Shown here: piece by piece, positions 1 through 46,746 of the stretch
Numbering within the stretch: the stretch's first letter is position 1
Layout: every line of letters begins with the position of its first letter
Origin: Candidatus Shapirobacteria bacterium CG_4_10_14_0_8_um_filter_39_15
GTDB lineage: Bacteria; Patescibacteriota; Microgenomatia; UM-FILTER-39-15
DNA length: 63,705 nt
NCBI GenBank assembly: GCA_002784465.1
Contig: PFLE01000008.1
Coordinates: forward strand, 1 to 63,705
Direction: 5' to 3'
The notes under the pieces: model-generated
The model's input: the letters and a program-made list of their open reading frames with translations, nothing else
Databases searched by the model: none
What the model was told of the DNA's origin: nothing
Translations under genes and position numbers: made by a program

Positions 1-86
1 GCCCTTTTTATTGACAATAAACCAAGAATATGTTATTCTAAAAATAGATCGGTTTGATCGCTGACCTCCAGGTAATCAGTCCTGAG

Positions 87-1056: not shown

Positions 1057-1059
1057 CTC

Positions 1060-1087: not shown

Positions 1088-1113
1088 CTAATTTGAAATT
1101 TACAATTTGAAAT

Positions 1114-1389: not shown

Positions 1390-1525
1390 CCCGCAGGTCA
1401 TCCTCGCGAAAGCGGGGAACTATACAAACAATAGGATTATTTATATTGATTCCCGATAGCGAATCGAAGATTCGATATATCAGTTCTTCGAACTGCTATC
1501 AGGTCGGGAATGACAACTAAACCAA

Positions 1526-6166: not shown

Positions 6167-7024
6167 ATGTCTGCTCAAATTAGGGTAATGAATGCTGCCG
6201 GAGAATATGAACCGTATGAGGAAGAAAAAGTCAGAAGCTCTTTGGCGCGGGCGGAAGCGGATGGGGTTTTTCAAGATAGAATAGTTGAGCATTTGCGGAC
6301 AAAACTTTACGACGGCATTCCCACGAAAGTTGTTTATAAAGAAATTCTTCATCTGCTTAAAAAATTAAAGTCGTCCTTGGCCTCGCGCTATCATTTAAAG
6401 CAGGCAATTATGGAATTGGGACCGACCGGTTTTCCTTTTGAAAAATATTTTGCCGGAGTATTGGAATCTTACGGATATAAAACGGTTACTAATGATTATA
6501 TTCGTGGAAAATGTGTCACTCATGAGATTGATATAGTTGCATGGAAAGAAGATTGCCACGTCGCTGCGGCTCCTCGCAATGACATTGCCGCGCTCGGGAT
6601 GACTTCGTCAAAAATAATGATTGAGTGCAAGTTTCATCACGAACCCGGGGTCCGGTCGGATATTAAAGACGGTCTTTATACCTATGCCAGATTTTTAGAT
6701 ATTAAAGAAAACGGGTTTGATGAAATTTGGCTGGTGACGAACACTAAAGCGACTTCGGAATTGGTTGCCTACGGCAACTGCGCCGGCTTAAAAGTAATCA
6801 GCTGGAATTATCCGGAGGATTTTAGCTTGCGACTGCTGGTTAGTCAAAAGAAGCTTCACCCGATTACGGTTTTAAATTCTTTATCTTCAGTTGATAAACA
6901 AATTCTTTTGGCTAACAATATTATTTTTTGTTACGAATTATTAAATCCTAAAGTTAATTGTTTGCCAAAAGATGCCTTGATAAAGGCGCAAAATGAGGCA
7001 AGGTTGGTGATAGGAACCAATTAA
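6167..7024 (+). CDS. ATP-cone domain fused to a Mrr-like PD-(D/E)xK restriction endonuclease-like domain
   Basis: N-terminal ATP-cone-like 90 aa. Nuclease motifs HEIDIVA ... IECK. An in-frame repeat-derived segment CHVAAAPRNDIAALGMTSS lies at about 6545-6610. Confidence 0.65.
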   Translation: MSAQIRVMNAAGEYEPYEEEKVRSSLARAEADGVFQDRIVEHLRTKLYDGIPTKVVYKEILHLLKKLKSSLASRYHLKQAIMELGPTGFPFEKYFAGVLESYGYKTVTNDYIRGKCVTHEIDIVAWKEDCHVAAAPRNDIAALGMTSSKIMIECKFHHEPGVRSDIKDGLYTYARFLDIKENGFDEIWLVTNTKATSELVAYGNCAGLKVISWNYPEDFSLRLLVSQKKLHPITVLNSLSSVDKQILLANNIIFCYELLNPKVNCLPKDALIKAQNEARLVIGTN

Positions 7025-7133
7025 GATTATCAGTTGATCAGATTATCAGGATAAGAAATCAGAGATCGGAGATCAGTAATATTTTACTGATATTCTGTTC
7101 TCGGGTTTACTTAACCAGATTTTCTGATGCACT
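7025..7133. repeat. family P1 imperfect palindrome
   Basis: CAGTTGATCAGATTATCAGGATAAGAAATCAGAGATCGG ... CTGATATTCTGTTCTCGGGTTTACTTAACCAGATTTTCTGATG. Confidence 0.7.
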
Positions 7134-7165
7134 GCCTTACTATTGAAGGGAGGTGAACAATATTT

Positions 7166-7927
7166 ATGTTTGATTTAACAGGAAAAAAAGCATTAGTGAC
7201 GGGTGGATCCCGGGGAATTGGCCGGGGAATTGCGATCTGCTTGGCAAAGCAGGGGGCTGACGTGGCCATTAATTATCATTCCAAAAAAGACGAAGCCGAA
7301 GTGGTCGCGGCTAAAATTAAAGCCATGGGACGCGAAGCATTTACGGTTCAGGCTGATGTTTCTAAAACAGAGGACGTCGTTAGAATGTTTGCTGAAGTAA
7401 TGGCAAAATGGGGAAAGCTTGATATTTTGGCAAACAATGCAGGAATCGCACCAGTAGCAACCTCGATTGATCAGACGACTGACGAACAGTGGGACTCGAT
7501 AATTAACATAAATCTAAAAGGTCAATTTCTTTGCGCCAGGGAGGCGGTGAAAGTGATGAAGCCCGGTTCAAAAATTATTAATACGGCCTCGATCGCCTCC
7601 GGAGGAGTCGGCGGCGGTTTTGGAGGATTAGCCAGTTACGTTGCTTCCAAAGGAGGAGTAGTGGGGTTAACAGAGGATTTGGCCGTTGATTGCGGATCAA
7701 AAGGAATTAATGTCAATGCCGTGGCTCCCGGAATAATTGAAACGGACATGACCAAAGAATTCATTGGTAATCCGGATGTTGCCAAAGGCTTTATTGCCCA
7801 TATCCCTAAAGGAAGATTCGGCAAACCGGAAGATATTGGGGCAGCAGTAGCCTTTTTAGCATCCGACGAAGCGGATTACATTACCGGGGCGGTAATTTAT
7901 GTTGACGGGGGATGGTTGGCGGCATAA
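7166..7927 (+). CDS. SDR-family oxidoreductase (FabG / glucose dehydrogenase-like)
   Basis: TGGSRGIGRGIA Rossmann motif, NNAGI, and the YxxxK motif (YVASKGG). Confidence 0.9.
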   Translation: MFDLTGKKALVTGGSRGIGRGIAICLAKQGADVAINYHSKKDEAEVVAAKIKAMGREAFTVQADVSKTEDVVRMFAEVMAKWGKLDILANNAGIAPVATSIDQTTDEQWDSIININLKGQFLCAREAVKVMKPGSKIINTASIASGGVGGGFGGLASYVASKGGVVGLTEDLAVDCGSKGINVNAVAPGIIETDMTKEFIGNPDVAKGFIAHIPKGRFGKPEDIGAAVAFLASDEADYITGAVIYVDGGWLAA

Positions 7928-18747: not shown

Positions 18748-18996
18748 ACCCAAAGTATGAACTGAAAGTTTTGCCAATTGATAAAGGCTTTGGGCCCCGA
18801 TTGGCGGGGCTTTTCATTTTTAAAGAGTTCTATCGCCCTTTAAAAGTTAAATAGATATCTAAAATGTATTTATCCGAGCTTTTGCTCGGTATTCAAAATG
18901 TGAAGGGAAGTCCCGCTATTATGCCGATTTCATCGGCATCAGCGGGATCCCGACGGTTCGAGCCGCAAGGCGAGAATAATGTCGGGATAATTTTTT

Positions 18997-19039
<43 letters not shown>

Positions 19040-19482
19040 TAAGCATGCAAGTGGAACGCCCGCGCAAATCTCGCAAGAGATTTGTTCGGGAGTCGCAGAC
19101 GGGTGAGTAATAGGTAGGAATCTACCTCGAAGCGGGGAATACCTATCCGAAAGGATAGCTAATACCCCATATGGTCCCGCACCATACGGTGCAGGAGCAA
19201 AGGATGTAACTGTCCGCTTTGAGATGAGCCTACTTCCTATCAGCTAGTTGGTGAGGTAATGGCTTACCAAGGCTTTGACGGGTAGGGGGCGTGAGAGCGC
19301 AATCCCCCACAAGGGCACTGAGACACGGGCCCTACTTCTACGGAAGGCAGCAACTGGGAATTTTGCACAATGGACGAAAGTCTGATGCAGCAACGCCGCG
19401 TGAAGGATGAAGGTTTTCGGATCGTAAACTTCTTTTGCCAAGGTTGAGAGACTTTGGCGAATAAGCACCCGCTAACTACGTG

Positions 19483-20337
19483 AGGTTTTGAAAGAAAAAC
19501 GTCGGCACGTAGGTTATCAATCTGGCTATATGCTGGAACACTTGGTTAATATTTGACTACTAAAGCAAACCTTGCTACAGTGAAAATGTCGAATAAACCC
19601 GAAAAAATGACCGCAGATCATATATGGGTATCAAGCTATCAGCAGGCAACCCCCCGTCTGACGGGGGAGAGTCCTCAGAGACTATACGCCAGAGTCCGAT
19701 GTTAATATCGGACAAGATATAGTCCAAGAAGAAAAATGGAATATCTCTTGAAACAAATTCTTATTGGTTCACTACTCGGGGATGGACATCTAACACCATT
19801 AAATAAGAAAGGTTTGTCTCAATTATACTTAAAGTATGATGATAAAACTCTTTCTTATCTGGAATGGTTACACAAGATGTTTATTCCGATTAAGACTAAT
19901 GAGATTAAAGAGAGATCAAAAGGTGGTTATCATCAACACTACTTTACTACATTGCCAAGTTTGGAACTGGGTTATTATCGGAAATTGTTTTATCCGTTGG
20001 GTAAGAAATCAGTACCGGAAAACATCTCCAAATTATTAACTCATCCTATTGCTTTGGCAATATGGTATATGGATGATGGAACGTTGGATTTCCGCAAGAA
20101 ATACCATCGTAATGCCTCTTTTGCAACATTTTGTTTTAGCTTCAAAGAATGTGAGTACCTGCAAAAAATGCTAGAGAGAAATTTCTCTATTCGGGTAGGT
20201 ATTCACAAAACCACAATGAGGGAAAAGCTATATTTTCGTTTATATGTCAGATCAGAAAGCATGGATTGTTTTCTGTGTTTGATTGGAAAATATATTCATC
20301 CCGTTTTTAAATATAAGGTTCTAATAGCTAAAACTCA
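19483..20337 (+). mobile_element. 16S intron 1 (group I-like core), inserted between GCTAACTACGTG and CCAGCAGC (about E. coli 517/518)
   Basis: Core TCAGAGACTATACG ... GATATAGTCC at 19676-19724. The boundaries lack the canonical terminal G. Confidence 0.7.
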
Positions 20338-20353
20338 CCAGCAGCTGCGGTAA
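19736..20353 (+). CDS. LAGLIDADG homing endonuclease (double motif)
   Basis: LLGDGHL and WYMDDGTL motifs. The ORF runs 16 nt into the downstream 16S exon. Confidence 0.85.
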   Translation: MEYLLKQILIGSLLGDGHLTPLNKKGLSQLYLKYDDKTLSYLEWLHKMFIPIKTNEIKERSKGGYHQHYFTTLPSLELGYYRKLFYPLGKKSVPENISKLLTHPIALAIWYMDDGTLDFRKKYHRNASFATFCFSFKECEYLQKMLERNFSIRVGIHKTTMREKLYFRLYVRSESMDCFLCLIGKYIHPVFKYKVLIAKTHQQLR

Positions 20354-20609
20354 TACGTAGGGTGCAAGCGTTATCCGGATTTATTGGGCGTAAAGCGTTT
20401 CGTAGGTGGTTTAATAAGTCATATCTTAAAGACCAAGGCTTAACCTTGGAAATGGGTCTGATACTGTTAGACTAGAATTTTGTTGGGGATGCTGGAATTC
20501 CCGGTGGAGCAGTGAAATGCGTTGATCTCGGGAGGAACACCAATGGCGTAGGCAGGCATCTGGGCAATGATTGACACTGATGAACGAAAGTTAGGGGAGC
20601 GAAAGGGAT

Positions 20610-21417
20610 TAATTTTAGTCCCCCTAGGTAGCAATATCTAGGAAAAAACTGGCTATATCGGTGAAACTCCTTGTTGTTTCGGGTATTATTTGGTATTATG
20701 GAAACAATGAGGACAATACCGAGGGAAGTCGGTTATTTTGAGGGTAGACGATAGAGGTTAGAAGTTGGAATTTGAAGCCTGCCTGCCGGCAGGCAGGTTA
20801 GAAAATAGAAGAAAAATTGATAAAATAAAAATGTGATAAAAACATTTCGTGATTTAGAGGTATACACGGAGTCTTACCAGTTAATGTTAATTGTACATGA
20901 AGGAGTTAAAAAATTCCCTGTGTATGAAAGGACAGATTTGGCTCCGCAAATGAGAAGATGTTCGAAATCACCTCCGGCAAATATCGCCGAAGGTTGGGCG
21001 AAGAGAAATTTTGAAAAAGAATTCAAAAAACATTTAGGGACGGCAATTGGTTCCTGCAACGAAATGGAAGTTCACATTGAAACAGCACGAGATTTAGGTT
21101 ACTGGGATAAAGAATTTTGTCAATCTCTTCTTAAAAGATACCAAAATGTAGGAGGTAAATTAAATAACCTCCGAGAAAATTGGAAAACATACTAACTTCA
21201 ACTTTCTACCATCATAATCTAATTTCTAGTTTCTATTGTCTATCTTCAATTTAATCTGACCCCGTAGAGACTGTACGCCGGTCCCGAGCTTAGCTCGGGA
21301 ATGATACAGTCCGAACTATACAGTAATGTATAGATCTCTAAAGAAATTTAGAGGCGCCCCGCACCGTATGGTGCAGGGTTAGTATCCCGATTTGTGTCGG
21401 GAGAAAGTAACAAAATG
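20610..21417 (+). mobile_element. 16S intron 2, group I, at GGGAT|TAGAGACC (about E. coli 788/789)
   Basis: The 5' exon ends in U and the intron ends in G. Core GTAGAGACTGTACG ... GATACAGTCC. Confidence 0.8.
20833..21195 (+). CDS. four-helix-bundle protein (23S rRNA intervening-sequence protein / Avd-like family)
   Basis: LEVY...SYQL ... QMRRCSKSPPANIAEGWAKR ... GSCNEMEVHIETARDLGY pattern. Confidence 0.8.
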   Translation: MIKTFRDLEVYTESYQLMLIVHEGVKKFPVYERTDLAPQMRRCSKSPPANIAEGWAKRNFEKEFKKHLGTAIGSCNEMEVHIETARDLGYWDKEFCQSLLKRYQNVGGKLNNLRENWKTY

Positions 21418-21504
21418 TAGAGACCCCTGTAGTCCTAACTGTAAACGATGCTCGCTAGATGGCCCCGTCTGACGGGGTTGTCGTAAGCTAACGCGTTAAG
21501 CGAG

Positions 21505-21537
<33 letters not shown>

Positions 21538-21680
21538 TAAAGGAATTGACGGGGAGGCGCACAACCAGGGGAGCGTGTGGTTTAATTCGAGACTAAACGA
21601 AGGACCTTACCTAGGTTTGACATGCTAGAAGTAGCTTCCGGAAACGGATAGTCACCCGTTAAGTCGGGGACTAGCACAGC

Positions 21681-21717
<37 letters not shown>

Positions 21718-21784
21718 CGGCTTTAGTGCCGGAACGAGCGCAACCCCTACTATCTGTTAAATATTCAGATAGGACAGCCCCGTC

Positions 21785-21914: not shown

Positions 21915-22142
21915 GACGGGGAGGAAGGAGGGGACGACGTCAAGTCAGCACGGCGCTTATGTCTAGGGCAACACACACACTACAATGGATCGGACAACGA
22001 GTTGCGAGCGCGCAAGCGTAAGCTAATCTCTTAAACCGATCCTCAGTTGGGATTGCGGGCTGTAACTCGCCCGCATGAACCCGGACTTGGTAGTAATCGC
22101 GGGTCAGCAAACCGCGGTGAATACGTTCTCGCCTCTTGTACA

Positions 22143-23038
22143 AAATAAATGCGCTTGGCAGTTTAGAAAACTAAGTGGTGAAAATCCACTTTTATAGAGA
22201 AATCATACTTAGAAATTAGATTAAGGATATGATTTTTATATATCTGTCACAAATGTTGTGACAGCTATAGTTGCGGACAGTCTTGAGGGGTAACCCGAAG
22301 GATGAAGGGTCCTATATACAAAGAGCAGTCCTCTTTTCAAAAGGGCAATAACGATCTGATTATGTGTACAGCAGAGAAGTTATTTTAAAAACCCAGAGGA
22401 ATGTTTGAAAAAGTTTTTTAAATGACCCAAGGAGATCCTGTGTGCATCAGAACTATAATCGGCCACAGGAAGTCAGCTGAGTCCATAGTAAGTAAAACTT
22501 GACAGGTCTATAAATAGTATCTAAATTAGAGATAGACCCGAAGCTTTACCGAAGGGACGAACTATATGTTAAATCCTCATTATATTGTCGGATTTGTTGA
22601 TGGCGAAGGATGCTTTAGTGTGTCCATAAGCCGAAAACGATTTCGAATACCTGAGGTTAGACTCAAATTTGAAATTGAGCTTAAAGGGGATGACGAACCA
22701 ATTCTGAAAGAGATCTAAAAATTTCTAGGTTGCGGATCAATCTACCATTTGGAATATAAAAAATACAAATGGGGACCGCATGCGAAATTTATGGTTGGTT
22801 TACAGAAAGATCTTATTAATAAAATAATACCTTTCTTTAAAAAATATCCTCTTCAGGCAAAAAAGAGAAAACAATTTGAGTTTTTCTGTAAGGTCGAAAA
22901 CATGATTCTTAAAGGGGAACATAGAAATCTTGAAGGAATTGAGAAGATAAGATTAATGAGAGAAAAACAACATATAGACTCGCTGGATGCGCTAGACGCG
23001 CACGTCCAGTGGGGCGTGGAATAGTTCTTAACCATGAT
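22143..23038 (+). mobile_element. 16S intron 3, between TTGTACA and CACCGCCCGTC (about E. coli 1396/1397)
   Basis: Joining the flanks restores the universal TGTACACACCGCCCGTC. The intron class is uncertain (no terminal G). Confidence 0.65.
22566..23024 (+). pseudogene. LAGLIDADG homing endonuclease (single-motif type) with an in-frame TAA
   Basis: MLNPHYIVGFVDGEGCFSV...ILKEI, then a stop at 22716-22718, then KFLGCGSIYH... in the same frame. The ORF track shows only 22749..23024. Confidence 0.7.
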
Positions 23039-23127
23039 CACCGCCCGTCAAATGAGCAAAGTCGGGGGTGCCTGAAGCTCCTGCTTAGCAGGAATGAAGG
23101 TAAACTCGGCGATGAGCATTAAGTCGT

Positions 23128-23836
23128 AAACTTGTTGCGACCTGCAATCGTAAGAATGCAGGAAAATCTAACTGTATCGGTGAAGCCTAAATCCGCCAGC
23201 TGGCGGATACGGTAATACCGAGGGAAGCTTGTTTCGGTAAAACAGTTGAACAGTTAAACAGTAAGACAGTAATCAGTGTAACGGTAATATGTTAGACTTA
23301 GTTAATGGCAACTATTTGGAGTGTTAAGCAACTTAGGGTATATCAGCGGCCATTGAAACTTTTGCCGCAATTGTATGATCTTGCTTATTCACTTCCAGTG
23401 ATTCGCCAAAAATTAAGAAAACAGATCATTAATTGCGGGGAAGGAATAGCCCCGTTGATTGCGGAAGGATTTGCTAAAAGAAGAAATGAAGCGGAAGTAA
23501 AAAGATTCTTCGAAATGGCAATGGGAGAGAGTGATGAATTAGCTACTCACCTAGAGCAAGTCAAAATTCTGGCAAATCGGTTTAAGAGTGTTAGAGTTGA
23601 ATTGTGTCAAAAGTTAATTGAAGAATACACAATCGAATCAAAAGAACTCTATAACCTTATTAAAAATTGGAATAATCATCCAACAAAATGATTTACCGTT
23701 TTACTGACTACTGTTTTACTGCAATACTGTTTAACAGATTTACAGATTCATAGCCCCGTAGAGACTACACGTTGGCCCCAGCTCAGCTGGGTGAAGATAT
23801 AGTCCATGCCTCGATGAAAATCGAGGAACACCAATG
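23128..23836 (+). mobile_element. 16S intron 4, group I, at AAGTCGT|AACAAGG (about E. coli 1498/1499)
   Basis: The 5' exon ends in U and the intron ends in G. Core GTAGAGACTACACG ... GATATAGTCC. Confidence 0.8.
23305..23691 (+). CDS. four-helix-bundle protein (IVS-protein / Avd-like family)
   Basis: LRVYQRPLKL ... INCGEGIAPLIAEGFAKR ... GESDELATHLEQ pattern, inside 16S intron 4. Confidence 0.8.
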   Translation: MATIWSVKQLRVYQRPLKLLPQLYDLAYSLPVIRQKLRKQIINCGEGIAPLIAEGFAKRRNEAEVKRFFEMAMGESDELATHLEQVKILANRFKSVRVELCQKLIEEYTIESKELYNLIKNWNNHPTK

Positions 23837-24007
23837 AACAAGGTATCCGTTCTGGAAGGAGCGGATGGATCACCTCCTTTCTAAGGAGATGTTTCACGAA
23901 CCTGTACTATTATGGTATAGGGAAAGGTATACACCCAAGCTTTTTTGGTTTGCTTGTAAAAGTTAACCATCACCTTCCCTTCACATTTTGGATATCAAAC
24001 AAAAAAA

Positions 24008-24033: not shown

Positions 24034-24202
24034 GTTGTGATAAAATTCTACGCAAGGGCTGCTGGTTCCCTAAAAACACTTCGGTGTTTTGAGGGTAAAC
24101 ATCGGCTTGCACTAAAAATTTGTTTCGACAAATTTTCAGTGCAGAACGCTTTCCTGATGACGGTTGAATTTATTAACCGATATATAAGTTGCGAATAAAA
24201 AG

Positions 24203-24411
24203 GGGTCGCTAGCTCAGTTGGTTAGAGCGCATTCCTGATAGCTAGCGCTTTGCGCTAGATATATCAGATGTAATTTATGGGCTACTAGTTCATCGGTAGA
24301 ACGCTTACCTGATAAGTAAGAAGTACATGGTTCGATTCCATGGTAGCCCACAAATAAATTACATCTGTTATAAGAATGAGGTCTCAGGTTCGAATCCTGA
24401 GCGACCCACCA
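24203..24411 (+). tRNA. tRNA-Ile(GAU) (A), canonical sequence with encoded CCA but split after position 37 by a 132-nt insert (24241-24372)
   Basis: The exons GGGTCGCTAGCTCAGTTGGTTAGAGCGCATTCCTGATA and AGAATGAGGTCTCAGGTTCGAATCCTGAGCGACCCACCA fold into a perfect cloverleaf. Confidence 0.75.
24279..24350 (+). tRNA. tRNA-Ile(GAU) (B), uninterrupted, innermost
   Basis: 72 nt: GGGCTAC TA GTTC ATCGGTA GAAC G CTTAC CTGATAA GTAAG AAGTA CATGG TTCGATT CCATG GTAGCCC A. Confidence 0.85.
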
Positions 24412-24495
24412 TAGAAATTCGCAACTTCTATAAGAAAGAAGTACCAGGTCCGACTCCTGGGCAGCCCACCCTGGTTTGTTTGGTATTTTTACAAG

Positions 24496-24846: not shown

Positions 24847-25176
24847 ATGAAACACAAATTGTTTTTTACCAAACCTCCTGAACTAATTACTCTTGAACCA
24901 AGAATTAAAAAGCTTTTGGAAAAATATCATTTGGATCAATATTATTCGGTTGAGGATTTGGAGTTAATGATTTATGAATGTTTACCAGAGAACGAATTTA
25001 ATGTTTTTGATCCGGTAATTGAGCATCTTGTTTTGGCAGAGGATAAGGCAGACTTTCTGATTTTTCTGAACAATGAACTTTGGAATGCGACTCCTTTAAA
25101 AATGTTAGGCGGTATATCACCAATACAAAGCATGAATTCTGATCGGTTAAAAGAAAAAAGGGAAGTGATGGATTAG
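24847..25176 (+). CDS. hypothetical protein
   Basis: 109-aa ORF. The C-terminal WNATPLKMLGGISP is reminiscent of DUF2384-type antitoxin C-termini, but this is weak. Confidence 0.5.
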   Translation: MKHKLFFTKPPELITLEPRIKKLLEKYHLDQYYSVEDLELMIYECLPENEFNVFDPVIEHLVLAEDKADFLIFLNNELWNATPLKMLGGISPIQSMNSDRLKEKREVMD

Positions 25177-25186
25177 GGTTAGATGA

Positions 25187-25214
25187 TTGACAAAAACTAT
25201 TATTTTGGTATAAT
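25187..25214 (+). promoter_or_regulatory. near-consensus sigma70 promoter
   Basis: TTGACA, 16-nt spacer, TATAAT. It is followed by the hairpin CCTGCAA...TTGCAGG plus a T-run at 25231-25264. Confidence 0.5.
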
Positions 25215-25280
25215 TTAGTTACTTAAATCTCCTGCAACACCGCAAGGTCTTTGCAGGATTTTTTATGCTATAATTTAATT

Positions 25281-25811
25281 GTGAAGCGTTGCCTTATTCT
25301 AATTGACGGAAGTAATTTTTATTTCAAATTAAAAGATCTTCAACTCCAAAATCTTCTTGAGTTTGATTTTTCTGGATTTACAAAGTTTTTAGTTAGTAAA
25401 AATAAACTTATCAAAGCTACTTATTATGTTGGGGCAATGCGAACCGATGGAACTGAAAGAGCCCAAAGATTGTTTAACGATCAGCGCAAGCTTTTATCCC
25501 ATTTAACAAAACAGGGTTTAAAATATTCTCTTGGATATTTATTAAAATCAAAAAATAAATTTCACGAAAAAGGGGTTGATGTTAATATAGCGGTAGATAT
25601 TCTTGTGGCCGTTTATGAAAACCAATGCGATCATCTTATTTTAGTTTCGTCGGATACTGATCTTTTACCGGAAATCAAAAAAGCTAAAGAAAAAGGCAAA
25701 ACGATTGAATATATTGGTTTTTCCCATCAACCAAGTTTAGCCATGGTTGCTAATTGTACGGAATCAAAATTACTTAAAAAAGAAGAAATTACCCCATTTG
25801 TTAAAAAATAA
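25281..25811 (+). CDS. NYN-domain (LabA/DUF88-like) predicted RNase
   Basis: LILIDGSNFY ... GVDVNIAVDIL ... LVSSDTDLLP. The GTG start at 25281 is preferred over the TTG at 25251. Confidence 0.75.
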   Translation: MKRCLILIDGSNFYFKLKDLQLQNLLEFDFSGFTKFLVSKNKLIKATYYVGAMRTDGTERAQRLFNDQRKLLSHLTKQGLKYSLGYLLKSKNKFHEKGVDVNIAVDILVAVYENQCDHLILVSSDTDLLPEIKKAKEKGKTIEYIGFSHQPSLAMVANCTESKLLKKEEITPFVKK

Positions 25812-25964
25812 CCCTAAAATCGTAACTATTTTCTGCCGACCGGTACAAAAGATTAACGTACTGGAGCAGAAAAAAAATAGGGAAATACCAAGGGTGTCAA
25901 TAGCAATTCACCTCTAAGGGGTACTTAAACAGAATATTATTTTGATTTAGTTTATAATTAATTT

Positions 25965-26528
25965 ATGGAAAACGAAGCTCCTGATAAATCGATTGAACAA
26001 GCTGAAAGAAGAAAAATAGGTTTATATAATAATGGTTATTCTATCGCTGCCCATGAAATCGGTCATGCATTAGTTGTTGACTCAATTTTTAAAGAACGAA
26101 GACATTATGAATTTAAGGTTGAGGTTATACCGGTAGTTAATTGGCGTAATCCAAAAGACCAAATGGGTTTTTATGGTGGAAACTCAAGAATAAGATTAAT
26201 AACCTTGTCGGATCAACTTCCAGTTAACGAAGAACAAGAAAAATTATTTGCGTCCTCAGGTGTTGCCGTCTGTAGGGTTATCGGAAGAAACGAAAATTTC
26301 CAACCACAAGCGCCTGGTAATGATGAAAAAGTTTTTACCCATAAAGGAAAATTTGATTCAGAAGAAGCAGAAAGATACGTAGCCTTGGCAACAAAAATAT
26401 TAGAACCAAATAAGGAGATAATTGACACTGCTGCTAAAAAGATTGCCAAGCAAATTTCCGAAACAACAAAACCTTTTATTCTTGACGAACAGAGGTTAAG
26501 AGAATTCTTAAGGCCAGAAATGGGATAA
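25965..26528 (+). CDS. hypothetical protein with an HExxH zinc-peptidase-like motif
   Basis: AAHEIGHALV motif, 187 aa. Confidence 0.5.
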   Translation: MENEAPDKSIEQAERRKIGLYNNGYSIAAHEIGHALVVDSIFKERRHYEFKVEVIPVVNWRNPKDQMGFYGGNSRIRLITLSDQLPVNEEQEKLFASSGVAVCRVIGRNENFQPQAPGNDEKVFTHKGKFDSEEAERYVALATKILEPNKEIIDTAAKKIAKQISETTKPFILDEQRLREFLRPEMG

Positions 26529-26743: not shown

Positions 26744-26955
26744 GGGCCAATGGCTCAGTTGGCTCGCACTGAAAAATTGCGAACAATTTTTTAGTGTAAA
26801 TGCCTCGTTTGTTTAGCCCGTAAGGGCTGTTAGCTTAGCTGGTAGAGCGTCGCGTTTGCAACGCGAAGGTCGCCAGTTCGAATCTGGCACAGTCCACCAG
26901 TGAGGCCCTTTACGGGCCATCGAGGAGGTTAGGAGTTCGAGTCTCCTTGGGTCCA
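26744..26955 (+). pseudogene. outer tRNA-Ala-like shell, interrupted in the D region and anticodon loop
   Basis: Cloverleaf parts:
- acceptor GGGCCAA / TGGGTCC with G3:U70
- TGGCTCAGTTGG D-arm start
- anticodon stem CCTCG / CGAGG with loop TTTG...CAT (TGC if joined)
- intact T arm AGGAG TTCGAGT CTCCT. Confidence 0.55.
26824..26899 (+). tRNA. tRNA-Ala(UGC), uninterrupted, CCA encoded
   Basis: GGGCTGT...ACAGTCC acceptor with G3:U70, anticodon loop TTTGCAA, T loop TTCGAAT. Confidence 0.9.
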
Positions 26956-30488: not shown

Positions 30489-30782
30489 ACAACTGTGTCC
30501 CGTCTTGGTGAATATAAAAATACCAGGACTTGTATGCAACTAATAACGGTGGAACCCGCAACTGGAGAGTTTTAAGTAAAAGTCTTCTCTCGCGAGGCAG
30601 CCAAGGGTAATACCGTGGGAAGTCCGGCTTTGCCGGACCCCGTAACGACTGATTCCGAAAGGATGAGATATAAATTACTTCCCAAAAGGGAAAATCTACA
30701 ATTTATATCATACGTTGCCTCCCATAAAATTTTATATGGGATGAAGATATAGTCTGCGCTTACAGAAATGTAGGATTTTGTG
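30489..30782 (+). mobile_element. 23S intron 2, ORF-less group I, at GGGGAT|AACAGG (about E. coli 2449, peptidyl-transferase ring)
   Basis: The 5' exon ends in U and the intron ends in G. Elements ATAACGGTGGA, AATACCGTGGGAAGTC, CCCGTAACGACTG, GAAGATATAGTCT. Confidence 0.8.
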
Positions 30783-30844
30783 AACAGGCTGATCTGATCC
30801 GAAAGTCCATATTGACGATCAGGTTTGGCACCTCGATGTCGGCT

Positions 30845-31650
30845 CAATTTTAGGGTCGCTACCCGAGTAATCGAGTAGATTAATACGAGCTCATAACGGT
30901 GGACTCCAATTGCGATATAATTATCGTAAATGGACAATACCGTGGGAAGTCGACAAAGAGATATTATTTTTGGAATGCTATTAGGTGACGGATTTTTAGA
31001 ACGCAATGGAAAATATGTCAGATTGGTAACTGACCATAGCGGAAAACAAGAAACTTATGTTAATTGGTTAGCAAGCCAATTAACTAACTTAAATCCGAAA
31101 TTAGTTTTTAAGAAAAGAATTGATCGAAGAAACCTGAAAGTTTACGATCATTGTATTTTAAGAACCAACACTTCATCTAAGTTGGAAAAATTCTTTTCCT
31201 TATTTTATGAAGGTAAAAGAAAAAGAATTCCACCTTGTTTAAGTAAAATAATATCTCCAATGGTGTTAGCGGTTTGGATAATGGATGATGGATACAAAAG
31301 AAATGATTGTCGGGCAATGAGAATAAATACCCAAAGTTATACCTTGGAAGAACAGAAAATTATCAGACAATCGTTTCTTCGTATCGGTATCAAAGTTAAT
31401 ATCCATAAACAAAAACAGCACTATTTGGTTTATATTCCATCTTCTTATATGAAGAAATTTATAGGAATGATTAAACCCTATATTATTCCTTCTATGGAAT
31501 ATAAAATTTGTTTGACCCCGTAACGACTGATTCCGAAAGGATGAGATATGAGATTTATCTTGTATCACACGCTCGTCCCCGCGCAAATTTCTGAAGAAAT
31601 TTGTTCGGGTGAAGGTATAGTCTGCACCATTAGTAATAATGGATTATGTG
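30845..31650 (+). mobile_element. 23S intron 3, group I with a LAGLIDADG ORF, at GTCGGCT|CATC (about E. coli 2511)
   Basis: The 5' exon ends in U and the intron ends in G. It has the same core word set as introns 2 and 4. Confidence 0.8.
30930..31523 (+). CDS. LAGLIDADG homing endonuclease (double motif)
   Basis: MLLGDGFLE and WIMDDGYK motifs. Confidence 0.85.
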   Translation: MDNTVGSRQRDIIFGMLLGDGFLERNGKYVRLVTDHSGKQETYVNWLASQLTNLNPKLVFKKRIDRRNLKVYDHCILRTNTSSKLEKFFSLFYEGKRKRIPPCLSKIISPMVLAVWIMDDGYKRNDCRAMRINTQSYTLEEQKIIRQSFLRIGIKVNIHKQKQHYLVYIPSSYMKKFIGMIKPYIIPSMEYKICLTP

Positions 31651-31795
31651 CATCGCATCCTGGGGGGGTAGCCCCTCCCAAGGGTTGGACTGTTCGCCCA
31701 TTAAAGCGGTACGTGAGCTGGGTTCAGAACGATGTAAATCAGTTCGGACTCTATCCAGAATGTGCGTTGGATTCTTGAGGGAAGTTCTCCTCAGT

Positions 31796-32278
31796 AAACC
31801 CATATTAGGGTTTTGCTGCTTCCGAAGCAATTCGGAATGAAAATTCGGCTTATAACGGTGGAGTCTTAATAACGAAGATAATACCGTGGGAAGTCGGTTT
31901 GGAGGACGGATGACAGAATACGGAAGACGGATAAGCAAAGCTTGATGCTTCGCAATAGCAGATAGAACAGATTTGACAGATTATTCCCTGTCATTCTGAA
32001 CTTGATTCAGAATCTATATAAATTATTGTATAGATTCCTGGTCAAGCCAGGAATGACATAGTAATTTTCTGTTTTTCTGTCTTTCTGCAATCTGTTTTCT
32101 GTTATCTGTCATCTGGCTTCTAGACTTGACCCCGTAACGACTGTATCCTTGTACTATTTAGTACAGGATCGACTTAAATCTACTTGATTTAGGTAACACG
32201 CCGACCCCGTTTAAATTTCAAAAGAAATTTGTTCGGGTGAAGATATAGTCTACACTTCTAGTGATAGAAGATAATGTG
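31796..32278 (+). mobile_element. 23S intron 4, ORF-less group I, at CTCAGT|ACGAGAGGACC (sarcin-ricin loop, about E. coli 2656)
   Basis: The 5' exon ends in U and the intron ends in G. Same core words as introns 2 and 3. It contains nested word palindromes and a P3 element at 31985-32060. Confidence 0.8.
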
Positions 32279-32725
32279 ACGAGAGGACCAGGAGAAGGGG
32301 ATCCCTGGTGTGCCAGTTGTCCGAGCTTAGCTCGGGCATCGCTGGGTAGCTACATCCTCTGGGGATAACTGCTGAAAGCATCTAAGCAGGAAGCTCCGCC
32401 CAAGATTAGGAATCCTTCCGAGCTTAGCTCGGTGAAGACCCCAGGTAGACTACCTGGTTGATTACGCCGCAAGGCGTAGTCGTTCGCGCGCAAGCGCGAA
32501 GATAGGCTGGGAGTGTATGCTTACCAGTACTAATTGGTCAAAAAGAATTAAGCTGTTTGAGATGAACCTGCGCGCGGAGCGCGTAATTTCTCTTCACTTT
32601 TCAAGGTGTCATCAGACACCGCAGACCCGCCAGAAATCGCTCTTCAAGTCGTGTTCGAATAGAACTGAAAAGACTTGAAGTAAGATTCGGCGGGTAAATA
32701 CTTTAACATTTTTGCCTTAAAGCCT

Positions 32726-32797
32726 TTCGGTCTTTGGAGCGGAGCGGAACTACTCTTTTCCCGTCTCGACTCGGTCGAGCCGAGGCGGGCCATTCCG
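32726..32797 (+). pseudogene. 5' fragment of a second, disrupted 5S-like copy
   Basis: A 46-nt stretch ACTCTTTTCCCGTCTCGACTCGGTCGAGCCGAGGCGGGCCATTCCG is identical to the intact 5S. The matching 3' piece CCGAACAAGATAGTAAAAC lies at 33060-33078. Confidence 0.55.
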
Positions 32798-32864
32798 TCG
32801 CGTAAAATCGCTGAAGCGATTAACGCGACTGGCACGTTGATTTGAGAACTCGTAAAATCTAGAA

Positions 32865-33017
32865 GTGTCTCGGTGACTAGAGCGGACTGGTACCACTCTT
32901 TTCCCGTCTCGACTCGGTCGAGCCGAGGCGGGCCATTCCGAACAAGATAGTTAAACGGTCTAGCGTCGACGATAGTAGAGCCTTGTGTTCTGCGAAAATA
33001 GATCGTTGCCGAGACAC
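32865..33017 (+). rRNA. 5S rRNA with a 30-nt hairpin inserted in loop C
   Basis: Helix I GTCTCGG / CCGAGAC, then CCATTCCGAACAAGATAGTTAAAC, GCGTCGACGATAGTAG and TGCGAAAATAGA. The extra hairpin lies at 32903-32932. Confidence 0.8.
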
Positions 33018-33188
33018 TTCTGTTCTCAAATCTTTACGTGGAACGTTTGACGTTCCGTGCCGAACAAGATAGTAAAACACTCTTATGTATCCTCTAATTT
33101 TCTCTAACATCCTCTAAAATCCCGATTGTTTTTTCTTTCAAAAAGTAGTATTATGTTTCCATTCACAAAAGAAAGGCGGTTATGATTA

Positions 33189-34364
33189 GTGCCAAGCAAA
33201 CAAGTACCACGAGAATCTAAAGTACCACAAGTATCACGAGCAATTAAAACCCGTGGTACCCGTGATACCCGTTCTCCCCTTGATACTTCTTCCAAGAATC
33301 CCCAGACCATGGAGGAGCTTCTGGCGCAGACCGGCTACCAAGTTCACGGATTAAAAAGAGACCAGCAAATTGAAGGAACGGTTACTAATGTCACTTCCCG
33401 GACCATCTTTTTTGATGTTGGCGCAAAGGCCGAAGGCATTGTGGTTGACCGGGAATTTGAGGCGGCCAAAGATTATATTAAGGCTTTAAAAATCGGCGAT
33501 AAAGTCAGTTTACGGGTTCTTTATCCGGAAAATGAGACCGGCCAGGTGGTTCTGTCGCTTAAGGGTGAAGCCCTTTCTTCCGCTTGGAAACATTTGCTGA
33601 AAGCAAAAGATGCCGGTGAAGAAATTTCCGTGGTTGTTAAAGAAACCGTTAAAGGCGGTTTTTTGGTCAATTCTTTCGGGGTGGTTGGGTTTCTGCCGAC
33701 TTCCCAATTGGGTGAAGCGCTTCAGAAAAAACAAAGCGATTTGGAAGGGAAAAATCTTAAAGTTAAAGTTATTGAAGTTGATAAAACTCAAAACCGGGTG
33801 GTTTTTTCCGAAAAAGCCGTGTCCGAAAAAGAAAAACTGGAAAAAATTAAAGGTTTGATTGCTAAAGTTAAAGAAGGGGAGATTTATGAAGCGGAAATCA
33901 CCGGTACCATGCCTTTTGGTGCCTTTGCCAAAATTAAAGTTGATAATCATGACGTTGAGGGATTGATCCATGTTTCGGAAATGTCCTGGGAAAAGATTGA
34001 TAATCCCGAGGGTTTTTATCGGATCGGCGATAAAGTTAAAATTAAAGTCATTAGTAAGGATGAATCCCAATCCCGTTTGTCTTTTTCCATCAGGCAGTTG
34101 ACCGAAGATCCTTGGAAAAATCTGATTGGTAAATATCAAGTTGATCTGCATGTGGTCGGCAAGGTTTCCCGATTAGTCGCTTCCGGTGCTTTTTTAGAAC
34201 TTGAACCGGGACTTGAAGGTTTTATCCATATTTCCAAAATTCCGGTGGAAAAACAGATTAAAGTGGGTGATAGTTTGGATTGTTTTGTGGAAGCAATTGA
34301 ACCGGAAAAAAGAAGAATATCATTAGGGTTGGTATTAACAGAAAAACCAGTAGGATATAAGTAA
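33189..34364 (+). CDS. rpsA: 30S ribosomal protein S1
   Basis: Four S1-domain repeats. The first 40 codons are a GTACCACGAG-type palindromic repeat, so the ATG at 33309 is a plausible true start. Confidence 0.85.
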   Translation: MPSKQVPRESKVPQVSRAIKTRGTRDTRSPLDTSSKNPQTMEELLAQTGYQVHGLKRDQQIEGTVTNVTSRTIFFDVGAKAEGIVVDREFEAAKDYIKALKIGDKVSLRVLYPENETGQVVLSLKGEALSSAWKHLLKAKDAGEEISVVVKETVKGGFLVNSFGVVGFLPTSQLGEALQKKQSDLEGKNLKVKVIEVDKTQNRVVFSEKAVSEKEKLEKIKGLIAKVKEGEIYEAEITGTMPFGAFAKIKVDNHDVEGLIHVSEMSWEKIDNPEGFYRIGDKVKIKVISKDESQSRLSFSIRQLTEDPWKNLIGKYQVDLHVVGKVSRLVASGAFLELEPGLEGFIHISKIPVEKQIKVGDSLDCFVEAIEPEKRRISLGLVLTEKPVGYK

Positions 34365-34779
34365 ATTTGAAATTTGAAATTTTACTGTCATCAGACAGGC
34401 TCGTATTTTGAAATCACATGTAACCGAAGTTACAGTGTAAACAAAAGATGCGAATTTTAAATGTTTAAATTTTTAAACATTGAATCATTGAAAATTGATA
34501 GCGAATCAGAGATTCGATATATCAGAACTTTGTTCTGCTCTGAAAATTTGGTTACTGTAATTGCTGAATTGTTTTTACTACTCCCACCCACCCTCATCAC
34601 CCCCAATTTTCCGCCATCTGTCAAGGATACTCCTTTCCCCTTATCACTTTCCTGGTTGTGCTTCTGCTCGTGATGGACGGGAGTCTGATAACAAGGGATC
34701 AAAATCAGATAGCGGTAACGATCATGTTTATGGAACTTTTTAGTGGTAAACGATCGGACCAGTAAGGCTGAAAGAATGA

Positions 34780-44742: not shown

Positions 44743-46746
44743 TTATGGAGTAGTAGTTGGAATCGGGGTTGGTTCTGCCGTTGGCACTGGACTGATGGCT
44801 GGTGCTGATTCGGTTGGCAGAGTTAACGGCGGCTTGATGCCGGTTGGCGCCGGTTGCGGCGGTTTTAAGGTTTCACTGGGTTTGACGCCTTCTTTTTTGG
44901 CAGTTTCGGCTAATTTCTTTTGTAAGGCTTCCAATTCATTTTGGGCTTTTTGATAATCCTGGGAATCAGTCGGAACAAGCGTTAAAGTTGTTTGCATTTC
45001 CGCGACCGCCTTATTAAATTTTGCTTGTTCTCGATAAGTAGCTGAAAGGTTGTAATGGGCGTTGGCAAAATTCGGTTTTAACTGAACCGCGATTTCAAAT
45101 TGCCTTTGGGCATCATCCCAATTTTTTAAAGAGAAATAAACACCGCCTAAGGCTACTCGCAGGTTTGGGTTAAGCGGGTCAAGAGTTAAAGTTTGTTGAT
45201 AAGAAGCCACCGTCCAGTTTTCCGCGTCTTGGGCAAAATTTATCAGTCCCCGATAAATGAGTGCTAAATTTTCCCAAGCAGTCACATTTTGGGGATCTAA
45301 AGAAACGGCTATTTTAGCCTCGCGGATTGCTTGCTGAATTAAGGTTGAGATATTCTGGCGATCCTGATCCGTCAAGTCTTTTTTACCGGCCAAGGCGTTA
45401 GCAAGCGCTAAATTGGTTTGCGAATAGGCGACGTGATAACTGAAACTGTATGGGGCTTGAGCAATGGCCTTAATTTGCCAATTATAAGTATCAAGACCGT
45501 TGTTTTGGGAATAAGCCACCAGCGATTTATGGAAATAATAATCGGCCAGCCAATTTTTGCCGAAAAGATATAAACCGCCCAGAGAAAAAATCAAAATCGG
45601 AATAAATAACAACCAGGGTAGAGGAGTGGATTTTTCTTCCAGTTCGGTCGCCGGGGATTCAACCGCTAAAACCGCCACTAATAAATATAAGGTAAATAGG
45701 AGAATGAAATTCGGCGGCAGAATCGCCAGCAAAACGAAAACCGCAACCAAGGCGGCTTTGTTTTTAAGCAGGGTTAATCCACCTTTAAACGATCGTTTGA
45801 TCAACCAAAGAAACATGACCAGACCGAACAATCCGGTGGTGGTAAAGAGTTGAAAATACCAATTTGAAGAAATGCCAAAACGAATTGACCAAAGATTGGT
45901 ATTGTTATAAGCCAAAGAATGGAAGCGGGTGAAAGCGGTAATGAAATTATCCGGACCGATTCCCCAAAACGGGGACTGCTTAAGAGTTTCGATGGCAATC
46001 ACCCAACCTTCATTAATTGATAATAAAATTGGTCGGGAAAGGTATAGCTGGCGCAGGCCAAGCGCCAAAGCAGCGGTCATAATCAAAACCGATAATCCCG
46101 ACAGGAGGAGCAGCGGTTTTTTAGTAGTTTTAATTTTAGACGCCAACAAAGAGACGCTGATAATTATTGCCGGAATTAAGATGGTGATCAAAGACAGAAT
46201 TGCGCCGGTTGGGGTAAAATTGACGCTTTTGAGCCAATCGGTTAGCGGCAAGAAGCTGGTAAGTTTTAAAAATTCAGTTAGGCTGATCAATGCCAGTAAA
46301 GTAATGCTAACAATATAACAATATAACAACCCGTCTCCACTCGGCGGTCGAACCGAGGCGGATCCAGCAATGTCTTCCTTCCCAAAGTGATTAGTAATTA
46401 AAAAGAATAACAGAGTGAAGGCGATAATTGTTCCCGTTGAATTGACGGACAAAAGAGTTTCTAACTTATTTGGTGATATCGCTAGACTCGAGATAATAAA
46501 TGCGGCGGCAATCCCCAGAATCGGTAAATCAAATACCGTGTGCCGGAAAGTAACGGTTTTATTAATAACCATTTTAACCATCCATAATAAGGTAAGGAAA
46601 ATGACCGCAAAAACCAGCAGAACATTTTTATTAAATTCAAAAAAATCATAAGTAAGAGGAAGAAAGAATAAGGGAAGAATAAAGACCAGACCGGCAATCT
46701 TTAATAAAATTAGGCGATTAATAATTTTGGTTAATTTTTCAAGCAT
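44743..46746 (-). CDS. O-antigen-ligase-like (Wzy_C) polytopic membrane protein with C-terminal TPR repeats
   Basis: Many TM segments and TPR-like AWENLALIYR / ANAHYNLSATY. An in-frame repeat segment GSASVRPPSGDGLLYCYIV lies at about 46295-46375. Confidence 0.7.
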   Translation of the reverse strand: MLEKLTKIINRLILLKIAGLVFILPLFFLPLTYDFFEFNKNVLLVFAVIFLTLLWMVKMVINKTVTFRHTVFDLPILGIAAAFIISSLAISPNKLETLLSVNSTGTIIAFTLLFFLITNHFGKEDIAGSASVRPPSGDGLLYCYIVSITLLALISLTEFLKLTSFLPLTDWLKSVNFTPTGAILSLITILIPAIIISVSLLASKIKTTKKPLLLLSGLSVLIMTAALALGLRQLYLSRPILLSINEGWVIAIETLKQSPFWGIGPDNFITAFTRFHSLAYNNTNLWSIRFGISSNWYFQLFTTTGLFGLVMFLWLIKRSFKGGLTLLKNKAALVAVFVLLAILPPNFILLFTLYLLVAVLAVESPATELEEKSTPLPWLLFIPILIFSLGGLYLFGKNWLADYYFHKSLVAYSQNNGLDTYNWQIKAIAQAPYSFSYHVAYSQTNLALANALAGKKDLTDQDRQNISTLIQQAIREAKIAVSLDPQNVTAWENLALIYRGLINFAQDAENWTVASYQQTLTLDPLNPNLRVALGGVYFSLKNWDDAQRQFEIAVQLKPNFANAHYNLSATYREQAKFNKAVAEMQTTLTLVPTDSQDYQKAQNELEALQKKLAETAKKEGVKPSETLKPPQPAPTGIKPPLTLPTESAPAISPVPTAEPTPIPTTTP

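Follow-up and report, generated by a model that had tools for sequence, protein, structure and literature searches.

Integrative elements that target tRNA and tmRNA genes, prophages and genomic islands among them, are kilobases long, encode an integrase and carry a copy of the gene segment that they displace; Williams is said to have sorted them, in 2002, into classes by their sublocation within the target gene. Group I introns occupy the anticodon loop of bacterial tRNA genes, such as that for tRNA-Ile in Azoarcus. Intervening sequences (IVS) of 23S rRNA are removed by RNase III without religation, a 108-nt insert is known in the 5S rRNA of Halococcus, and the REP/RAYT and IS200/IS605-type hairpin elements make up known families. 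Here we describe an arrangement whose logic comes closest to that of the integrative elements in tRNA genes and next to that of homing introns in rRNA and tRNA genes. It was found in contig PFLE01000008.1 of Candidatus Shapirobacteria bacterium CG_4_10_14_0_8_um_filter_39_15 (63,705 nt, the whole stretch being called the window below), where an intact 5S rRNA gene lies between the pieces of a second 5S gene and two tRNA genes of the same operon are nested likewise. No report of nested tRNA or 5S genes, in bacteria of the Candidate Phyla Radiation (CPR) or in other bacteria, was found in the literature. The explanation that we favour, and hold to be reasonably probable, is that cassettes bearing a replacement gene enter essential single-copy RNA genes at exposed loops, that the old gene decays, and that repeats of the event build up layers.

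The source chromosome is that of a groundwater bacterium of the Patescibacteria (CPR). The window holds a single rRNA operon, on the + strand, and the nests, hairpins and modules located in the window all lie on this strand. The 23S gene ends at about 32545, an Rfam 5S match covers 32869-33014 and an S1 gene starts at 33189. In this interval, a 262-nt insert (32798-33059) containing an intact 5S gene (32865-33017) splits an outer 5S copy into a 78-nt 5′ piece (32720-32797), which runs from the 5′ strand of helix I to loop C, and a 24-nt 3′ piece (33060-33083, CCGAACAAGATAGTAAAACACTC). Positions 32720-32797 repeat 32863-32940 directly at 86% identity, the final 46 nt being identical, and positions 32933-32961 are repeated at 33055-33083 with 83% identity. 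Every sequence feature claimed in an earlier note on this DNA, which had been made from the letters alone, was recovered where that note had placed it, apart from the end of the 3′ piece: the start at 33060 was right, and the piece runs on from 33078 to 33083. The break does fall in loop C, the 5′ piece ending with CATTCCG and the 3′ piece resuming with (CCG)AACAAG. When joined, the two pieces make one 5S sequence that reads straight through helix III and loop C, abutting exactly in 5S coordinates. The anatomy supports the reading of a split outer gene nested around an inner one.

About 75 kb of this genome and 0.8 Mb of related sequence were examined, the latter consisting of some 80 loci of related CPR bacteria (designated by L-numbers) recovered around S1 homologues; a survey anchored on this gene favours loci with the order 23S-5S-S1. 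The 591 nt from 32600 to 33190 are present in six independent assemblies, from different samples and two studies, at 99.7-100% identity (0-2 single nucleotide polymorphisms), and the k-mers used in assembly (127-141) exceed the 46-nt repeat. Two short-k Logan contigs break within the 5S repeat, as is to be expected of a true repeat. These data confirm that the nested 5S arrangement is real and not the artefact of a single assembly. rRNA operons are classic sites of metagenomic mis-assembly, and the notion that the 5S alleles of two co-existing strains were collapsed or joined into a chimera could point to locus L014, where positions 1-4037 are 23S-like and only about 70-80% identical to the window (upstream of 31651), suggesting a chimeric contig there, the rest of the contig being more than 99.7% identical. 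Against the six concordant assemblies and their k-mer lengths, and with the same architecture present at two tRNA genes of the contig and in unrelated contigs from other projects, such a join is scarcely credible. Positions 1-231 of L011 also differ from the window; the divergent stretches of L014 and L011 are probably chimeric rRNA-operon joins or strain differences in intron content.

The 5S genes of the related loci fall into two recognisable types. The inner gene of the window is of the type carried by its nearest relatives (L018 and L021; type 1), and the outer copy is of that carried by L028, L030, L038, L089, L092 and L097 (type 2). Over its first 32 nt the outer 5′ piece agrees with type-2 genes (L089, L038, L030, L028) at 29 positions, against 21 of 32 with the inner gene, and the last 9 nt of the 3′ piece (AAAACACTC) are again type 2. 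Between these stretches, the final 46 nt of the 5′ piece (32752-32797), including a copy of the loop-C hairpin (32760-32789), and the first 14 nt of the 3′ piece are identical to the inner gene, in agreement with what had been noted earlier for the 5′ side. CCG is common to the end of the one piece and the start of the other and may be a 3-bp target duplication; with the pieces joined, 46 nt to the left and 11 nt to the right of the break form a contiguous 57-nt tract of inner type centred on the insertion site.

An Rfam search of the locus, called for in the earlier note, matched the inner gene over its full length (RF00001, model positions 1-120) with 58 bits against a gathering score of 38, and yielded no match at E<=10 for the outer 5′ piece in the interval 32690-33110. 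A clade-specific 5S hidden Markov model (HMM) did find both the 5′ piece (E=2e-5) and the 3′ piece (E=0.008). The outer copy represents only model positions ~2-61; no 5S-like sequence occurs beyond 33083, nor any other 5S fragment within the whole window, which leaves its 3′ half missing. The outer gene therefore cannot make 5S rRNA: it falls short of the five helices, and of the two strands of helix I, that a functional gene possesses. The claim of a second 5S-like copy thus stands as to its 5S origin, and the copy itself is of a different type and truncated; it is a dead shell, of a 5S type native to other CPR lineages.

Upstream, the outer gene retains the 5′ strand of the extended stem of its type (TTTTTGCCTTAAAG), which is overlapped by the 3′ end of a long-hairpin spacer element (32608-32719) with nhmmer matches in more than 15 loci; a similar hairpin element precedes the native type-2 5S gene of L097. 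The element (about 80-110 nt, of the form ..CCGCCAGAAATCGC..TTCGAATAGAAyTGAAAAG..TAAGATTCGGCGGG..) occurs on both strands in many CPR loci, upstream of 5S genes, in the radA-rho gap and, in L050, inside 23S domain VI. Besides the window copy, examples lie at 14638-14720 of L062, 7793-7870 and 7984-8060 of L031, 3703-3782 of L019, 9146-9221 and 3914-3992 of L050, and 3262-3338 of L097. It has no Rfam match and looks like a dispersed mobile hairpin or a structured RNA of no known family. In three other loci, displaced 5S 3′ ends were observed 25-340 nt downstream of an intact 5S gene (L085, 1073-1098; L092, 6353-6379; L097, 3493-3515), the fragment in L085 being of another 5S type. Displaced ends of this sort are the classic trace left where an insertion supplies its target with a new 3′ end.

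The insert as a whole is predicted to fold with a minimum free energy of -109.4 kcal/mol (z = -7.2 relative to shuffles); both of its ends form hairpins, and a long prolongation of helix I encloses the inner gene. The left-end hairpin (32798-32828, TCGCGTAAAATCGC TGAA GCGATTAACGCGA) is the small hairpin that had been described as following the break; it is predicted in this fold and in that of the larger context (32720-33090). The 5′ arm of the extension stem (32839-32864) consists of GATTTGAGAAC, an 11-nt bulge and AGAA; the 3′ arm (33018-33032) consists of TTCT and GTTCTCAAATC. Helix I of the inner gene, enclosed by the two, is itself extended by GTGT/ACAC. The predicted right-end hairpin (33037-33059, CGTGGAACGT TTG ACGTTCCGTG) closes with TTCCGTG which, followed by CCG, mimics the target TTCCG. 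The insert ends had also been claimed to pair with each other (CTGGCACG/CGTGCC). They do so only in the minimum-energy fold of the larger context, and the pairing competes with the local 3′ hairpin. No ribozyme or intron family of Rfam matched the insert at E<=10; the group I intron model RF00028 had no match at that threshold in 32690-33110 and does match elsewhere in the operon.

The minimum-energy fold of 32720-33090 pairs the helix-III strands of the outer copy across the insert. Such pairing would suit an explanation in which shells are kept to serve the inner gene, be it as a processing scaffold, as an insulator or as decoys that draw off nucleases recognising anticodon loops or loop C. 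However, the frequency of this fold in the ensemble is 0.0006 and the centroid differs from it; further evidence on this point is given with the tRNA nests.

The stem that flanks the inner gene had been taken for a clamp belonging to the nest. It is indeed present, and the 30-nt flanks form a duplex of -22.5 kcal/mol, sixth among 57 5S genes. Long complementary flanking arms are found as well around the un-nested 5S genes of L018, L021 and L073 and around most type-2 genes. Because un-nested 5S genes of relatives carry an extended stem of the same kind, the clamp is not special to nesting; it is the ordinary extended helix-I stem of pre-5S rRNA in the clade and would have been brought in with the gene.

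The loop-C hairpin likewise proved to be present and less unusual than first thought. Loop C of the inner gene has 35 nt, as against 5 in the Rfam model, the extra 30 nt forming the hairpin at 32903-32932. A homologous hairpin occupies the same position in the un-nested 5S gene of L073, which is itself of the inner type and has an extended stem. Hairpins of different sequence, the hairpin form being kept, occur in loop C of L044/L050 and of L039, L041, L042 and L047, and longer inserts in L053, L023 and L024. Loop C is thus a site in CPR 5S genes at which small hairpins have been inserted recurrently, and the hairpin is a property of the inner gene type and not of the nest. A third window copy of this hairpin family (46333-46361, GTCTCCACTCGGCGGTCGAACCGAGGCGG; no matches in 100 shuffles) lies outside the rRNA operon, and in L042 the 5S hairpin recurs in the 23S-5S spacer. 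A hairpin common to nested and un-nested genes implies that CPR 5S rRNA tolerates, or uses, an expansion at a site of contact with the large subunit.

From this anatomy we infer that a 262-nt cassette inserted into loop C of a resident 5S gene of a different sequence type. The cassette would have comprised a complete gene, its loop-C expansion hairpin already in place, together with the extended helix-I stem from which that gene is processed and a terminal hairpin on either side. The inner gene would now supply the 5S rRNA, freed from the operon transcript via its own extended stem, as the un-nested 5S rRNAs of the clade presumably are; a scan of the 5S locus for promoters and terminators revealed no signal exceeding the shuffled expectation. 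The split resident gene would be a non-functional shell that has since lost its 3′ half, and the 57-nt tract of donor type across its break may be a co-conversion tract. Two simpler events were considered and rejected. A tandem duplication is contradicted by the sequence that separates the outer 5′ piece from the inner gene, which is no repeat of what lies upstream of the outer piece, and by the other type of the outer 5′ end. One-sided homologous recombination that imported the upstream part only leaves unexplained a 3′ piece starting exactly where the 5′ piece ends.

More serious is the possibility of a local duplication in which no mobile cassette took part: replication or repair template switching at highly transcribed, structured RNA genes would have copied a gene with its flanks into the gene's own loop, as a mutational by-product that persists for being harmless. 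The 46 + 11 nt of identity between outer and inner 5S genes fit a local copy, and the breaks adjoin stable hairpins. The difference in type outside the central tract, together with the failure of the intervening sequence to duplicate that upstream of the outer piece, speaks against it, as do several features of the tRNA nests.

The earlier claim of nesting at three RNA genes of one operon holds as well: with the inserts removed in silico, ARAGORN called tRNA-Ile(GAT) for each of three layers at 24056-24470, all of them valid cloverleaves, and tRNA-Ala(TGC) for the shell at 26744-26955. The outermost tRNA-Ile shell (24056-24068, 24101-24105, 24143-24158 and 24432-24470) has two extra hairpin inserts in its D loop and C55. 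The middle shell (24203-24239 and 24372-24411) makes a perfect cloverleaf with encoded CCA, and the inner gene (24279-24351) is flanked by arms of 19 nt. Compensatory changes in the acceptor, anticodon and T stems distinguish the layers, which therefore diverged as working tRNAs, none being a recent copy of another. The tRNA-Ala nest has two layers. Its shell (26744-26762, 26797-26811 and 26918-26955) is interrupted by a D-loop hairpin (26763-26796) and by a 106-nt cassette (26812-26917) holding the inner gene (26824-26899), and with both inserts removed it has a decayed D stem and an A6.G67 mismatch. Contrary to an earlier placement of the break within the D loop, the cassette interrupts the anticodon itself (TTTG|..|CAT), and the hairpin of the D loop is an insert in its own right. 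When flank pairing was ranked over 70 tRNAs, nested inner copies filled 9 of the top 10 places; strongly pairing flanks thus mark the nested tRNA copies, unlike the situation in 5S genes.

Related hairpins (CTyGCACTrAAAAtTTG-loop-CAAaTTTTyAGTG) were observed at 24106-24142 and 26763-26796, in each case after the D-loop GG of a dead shell, the outermost tRNA-Ile one and the outer tRNA-Ala one; the former has a further hairpin in the same loop (24069-24100). Nests of this kind mislead gene finders: in its intron mode ARAGORN calls intron-containing or hybrid tRNAs here. Annotation is affected in other ways too, through 5S length outliers and short-k assemblies that break at the repeats.

The inserts could also be functional introns of a new bacterial kind, the outer halves being rejoined, or acting as paired fragments, once RNase P, RNase Z or RNase III has cut the inner gene free. 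In favour of this, position 37/38, where the tRNA-Ile inserts lie, is the canonical one for introns; a number of immediate shells fold as perfect cloverleaves; and the two exon ends would be kept together by the long arm helix. According to the predicted folds and a reading of the junctions, the arm helix is continuous, with a single bulge of 4 nt next to the acceptor stem of the inner gene; no bulge-helix-bulge motif was seen, no dedicated search for this motif having been made. Rfam had no intron or ribozyme match in the tRNA nests at E<=1, RF00028 included, and a hammerhead suspected at the tRNA-Ile junction was dismissed, its CUGAUAG motif departing from the CUGAnGA core and Rfam lending no support. 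A functional intron is excluded for the outer 5S gene, whose whole 3′ half is missing, and for the tRNA-Ala and outermost tRNA-Ile shells with their extra D-loop inserts, stem mismatches and C55. The degenerate shells of some relatives and a compensatory change in the cassette arms, both described below, also speak against it, and overall the explanation is very unlikely.

The comparison with related genomes that the earlier note had recommended uncovered nested tRNA-Ile, tRNA-Ala and 5S genes in other lineages. Nested tRNA-Ile(GAT) genes occur in six lineages (the window, L028, L031, the L050 group, L068 and L086) among about 20 non-redundant loci holding this gene, and the nest of the L050 group has four layers. 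The immediate shells are intact in three of the lineages and visibly degenerate in the other three (L050, L068, L086). L025 has a tRNA-Ala(TGC) nest with arms homologous to those of the window, and in the same locus fragments surround two other tRNA-Ala genes. A second, independent 5S nest is present in L044/L050, where an inner gene of 142 nt with its own arms lies in an L064-like shell broken just before loop C. L028 and L033, whose 23S sequences are about 92% identical, form a filled/empty pair: when joined, the L028 shell halves are identical at 73 of 73 positions to the intact tRNA-Ile gene of L033, 181 nt having been inserted next to A37 (A37/A38 region). The overwriting of small RNA genes appears to recur in this bacterium and its relatives, and the shells decay with depth. 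In L060, a tandem array of 93-nt tRNA-like units follows the tRNA-Ile gene (2909-3100); the units have a T arm and the 3′ strand of the acceptor, and their anticodon arm is replaced.

These nests bear on the alternatives. One lineage, L068, pleads for template switching, its shell and inner tRNA-Ile being nearly the same sequence in a true self-in-self arrangement. In L028, by contrast, the inner tRNA is unlike its shell and the shell is identical to its orthologue in L033; layers alternate between two tRNA-Ile types, and five tRNA-Ile cassettes from four lineages share conserved ends. Moreover, part of what would contradict local copying has been observed, namely an inner-type gene with arms in the un-nested state (L073) and, as described below, solo copies of cassette ends at unrelated sites. 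On the whole, we consider local copying unlikely. As to shells maintained for the benefit of the inner gene, it can be said that successive tRNA-Ile layers always differ in anticodon-stem sequence; yet relatives do without shells, and shells degrade with depth. We give this explanation very little weight, about as little as that of functional introns.

What the nests would have in common, under the replacement-cassette explanation, is the kind of loop invaded in this CPR clade, the anticodon loop in tRNA-Ile(GAT) and tRNA-Ala and loop C in 5S, and the kind of invader, a short protein-less cassette carrying a working copy of the gene that it interrupts. The target genes being single-copy and essential, only insertions that bring a replacement would survive. 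The innermost copy alone keeps an intact target; therefore, repeated events would build layers in the manner of a Russian doll, the outer shells decaying. Recombination within the conserved halves of the shells probably carries the cassettes from one lineage to another, much as in homing.

The tRNA-Ile cassettes offer a clue to how they might move. Five of them (two in the window and one each in L028, L031 and L050) have common end motifs, GCG-hairpin-CGA followed by (T/C)ATAT(C/A)AG at the 5′ end and CT(G/T)YTAT(A/G) at the 3′ end. The arm sequences adjoining the tRNA differ by lineage and remain complementary nonetheless. In the middle cassette of the window TATATAAG pairs with CTTCTATA, in place of TATATCAG with CTGYTATA in the others; this compensatory change (one C-G to A-T) keeps the arm-arm pairing and loses the complementarity to the anticodon loop and with it the pairing to the exon, which speaks against the intron explanation.

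Two modules in the window have the same ends and no cargo. One (1455-1503; GATA GCGAATC-GAA-GATTCGA TATATCAG TTC-TTC-GAA CTGCTAT) is situated between a gene for a CsoR-like repressor and a copper-transport operon; the other (34497-34541; GATA GCGAATC-AGA-GATTCGA TATATCAG AAC-TTT-GTT CTGCT) is downstream of the S1 gene. Both have a 3-nt loop in the place of the tRNA and the same first-hairpin stem. GATA precedes every copy of the module and is contained in the anticodon loop of tRNA-Ile(GAT), CTGATAA. Module 1455-1503 was further seen to lie in the loop of an 8-bp palindrome (ATTCCCGA / TCGGGAAT, 1446-1512) and may have split the operator of a CsoR-type repressor. In all, the tRNA-Ile module has several dispersed copies whose ends are conserved: in the window two with cargo and two without, and further ones with cargo in L028, L031 and the L050 group. 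No more solo modules were found in an extra 10 kb beyond the window. In viral contigs, two strict patterns for the tRNA-Ile junction and the solo module had no match, and the loose matches, lacking a tRNA context, look like chance.

ATA..ATA (or ATG) flanks the five tRNA-Ile cassettes and CCG..CCG the 5S cassette, which can be read as a 3-bp duplication. The dispersed module and the apparent duplication point to a non-autonomous, transposon-like element mobilised in trans, and the vehicle of the tRNA-Ile cassettes may be precisely this small two-hairpin module. RAYT-like Y1 transposase genes (IS200/IS605-type, ~210-228 amino acids) are present in 7 of the related loci (L019, at 6936-7622, L051, L092, L064, L039, L089 and L079) and are candidates for the mobilisation of hairpin elements.

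Several observations weigh against the cassette explanation or against parts of it. The sequences used throughout are short-read metagenome assemblies. No cassette (the inserts range from 106 to 262 nt) contains an open reading frame (ORF) and no enzyme was identified; a tblastn search of the 64-kb window for Y1_Tnp was negative. The junctions read as 3-bp duplications are ambiguous, being equally readable as junctions with none, and neither the solo module at 34497-34541 nor the tRNA-Ala cassette has such a duplication. Solo copies of the 5S cassette ends did not turn up in the sequence examined. The 57-nt identical tract could equally have arisen if one copy later converted the other. Perfect cloverleaves are still formed by the middle tRNA-Ile shell of the window and by those of L028 and L031, for which a splicing-dependent function is possible. 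Finally, the nearest S1 relatives, L018 and L021, natively carry the inner 5S type and the shell, supposedly the older, is of the type of more distant lineages, a distribution that needs a patchy history of replacement or import of the whole locus.

With these points taken into account, insertion of replacement-gene cassettes is still the explanation that we prefer. More tentatively, and with considerable doubt, we raise the possibility that the CPR harbour an undescribed class of protein-less selfish elements: self-targeting home-and-rescue cassettes in exposed loops of essential single-copy RNA genes (tRNA-Ile, tRNA-Ala and 5S), which would carry a complete replacement clamped by its own stem, be mobilised in trans via conserved hairpin ends and overwrite their targets repeatedly, leaving a stratigraphy of past alleles. 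If so, the most conserved small RNA genes of these tiny genomes would be replaced wholesale, and repeatedly, and not merely mutated. Each replacement would leave a dated fossil and thus a direct record of how 5S and tRNA alleles have been exchanged horizontally within an uncultured radiation.

The operon and its surroundings have other features of interest. The S1, RadA, Rho, LeuRS and ArgRS genes of the window are bacterial. The closest named relatives of the S1 protein are from Beckwithbacteria/Microgenomates-type genomes (~48-55% identity), and a search of the genome collection with this protein gave no match above 44% identity. Alignments with most relatives of S1 begin only at about residue 30-38, so that the true start may be downstream of the one called, and inverted repeats within the called 5′ end of the frame (33195-33275; GTACCACGAG / CCCGTGGTAC and GTATCACGAG / CCGTGATAC) may then represent a leader structure. 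Group-I-like introns and other inserts, with LAGLIDADG and 23S_rRNA_IVP reading frames, interrupt both the 16S and the 23S gene. Relative to L060 and L049, six pieces make up the 16S gene (18991-19482, 20338-20611, 21407-21764, 21917-22142, 23039-23129 and 23837-23890), with a LAGLIDADG gene at 19736-20353, two 23S_rRNA_IVP genes at 20833-21195 and 23305-23691, and an 896-nt insert containing a weak match to group II intron domains D1-D4 at 22450-22557. The 3′ part of the 23S gene (30539-32300) contains three related group-I-like repeats (about 30606-30783, 31507-31651 and 32126-32279), one of which holds a LAGLIDADG gene (30930-31523) that is called as two separate genes in the strain assembly L008. 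Between tRNA-Ile and tRNA-Ala, the 16S-23S spacer has three reading frames (within 24847-26528), none with a recombinase domain. One of them (25251-25811) encodes an NYN-domain protein (PIN-like RNase), which might act in processing of the operon that encodes it; the other two have no Pfam match.

Set beside the integrative elements of tRNA and tmRNA genes, the nests share insertion into the anticodon or T loop of an RNA gene, incoming DNA that restores what the insertion destroys, and a displaced fossil fragment of the old gene, of which the 5S 3′ ends of L085, L092 and L097 are further instances. The integrative elements supply only the portion of the gene that lies 3′ of the crossover, forming a hybrid gene and one displaced fragment, whereas the nests contain a whole gene with both old halves outside; and in place of kilobases with an integrase there are 106-262 nt with neither an ORF nor a recombinase gene. 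The likeness to the hairpin elements of the REP/RAYT and IS200/IS605 families extends to small dispersed hairpin modules, to insertion specific for orientation and site, and to the Y1_Tnp genes of related loci, although the apparent 3-bp duplications are atypical of IS200/IS605 transposition. With IVS and expansion segments of rRNA the 30-nt loop-C hairpin has in common its occurrence at one site in several lineages, with differing sequence and conserved hairpin form; the nest, in contrast, holds a second complete gene.

Like homing group I introns, for which co-conversion of flanking exon sequence is known (for instance PMC7315562), the nests target conserved loops of essential RNA genes, are present or absent at corresponding sites among lineages, and have what may be a donor-type tract on both sides of the insertion (46 + 11 nt flanked by type-2 sequence, a picture that later gene conversion would produce as well). 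Their operon is itself full of group-I-like introns with LAGLIDADG genes. They differ in showing no ribozyme core by Rfam and in that the host gene appears to be abandoned for the cargo and not spliced. Archaeal and eukaryal tRNA introns at 37/38, and the split or permuted tRNA genes of archaea (reviewed in PMC4090602), resemble the tRNA-Ile inserts in position and in the long helix that joins the exon ends; the nests are bacterial, have no evident bulge-helix-bulge and a whole tRNA inside the insert, and are enclosed by shells that decay.

As a design, the closest analogue is synthetic. Engineered home-and-rescue gene drives (PMC7968924) cut an essential gene and carry a working replacement for it. 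In both cases the element resides in an essential gene together with a rescue copy, and loss of the element, or imprecise alleles, would be lethal; the drives are synthetic, nuclease-encoding and eukaryotic, and the nests are known here from sequence alone. Should the home-and-rescue proposal be right, the nests would embody a third solution to the problem of living inside an essential gene, beside self-splicing and the restoration of part of the gene. Theirs would be a new selfish strategy, in which an element carries a spare of the gene that it breaks, and to which synthetic biologists came independently when they devised gene drives.

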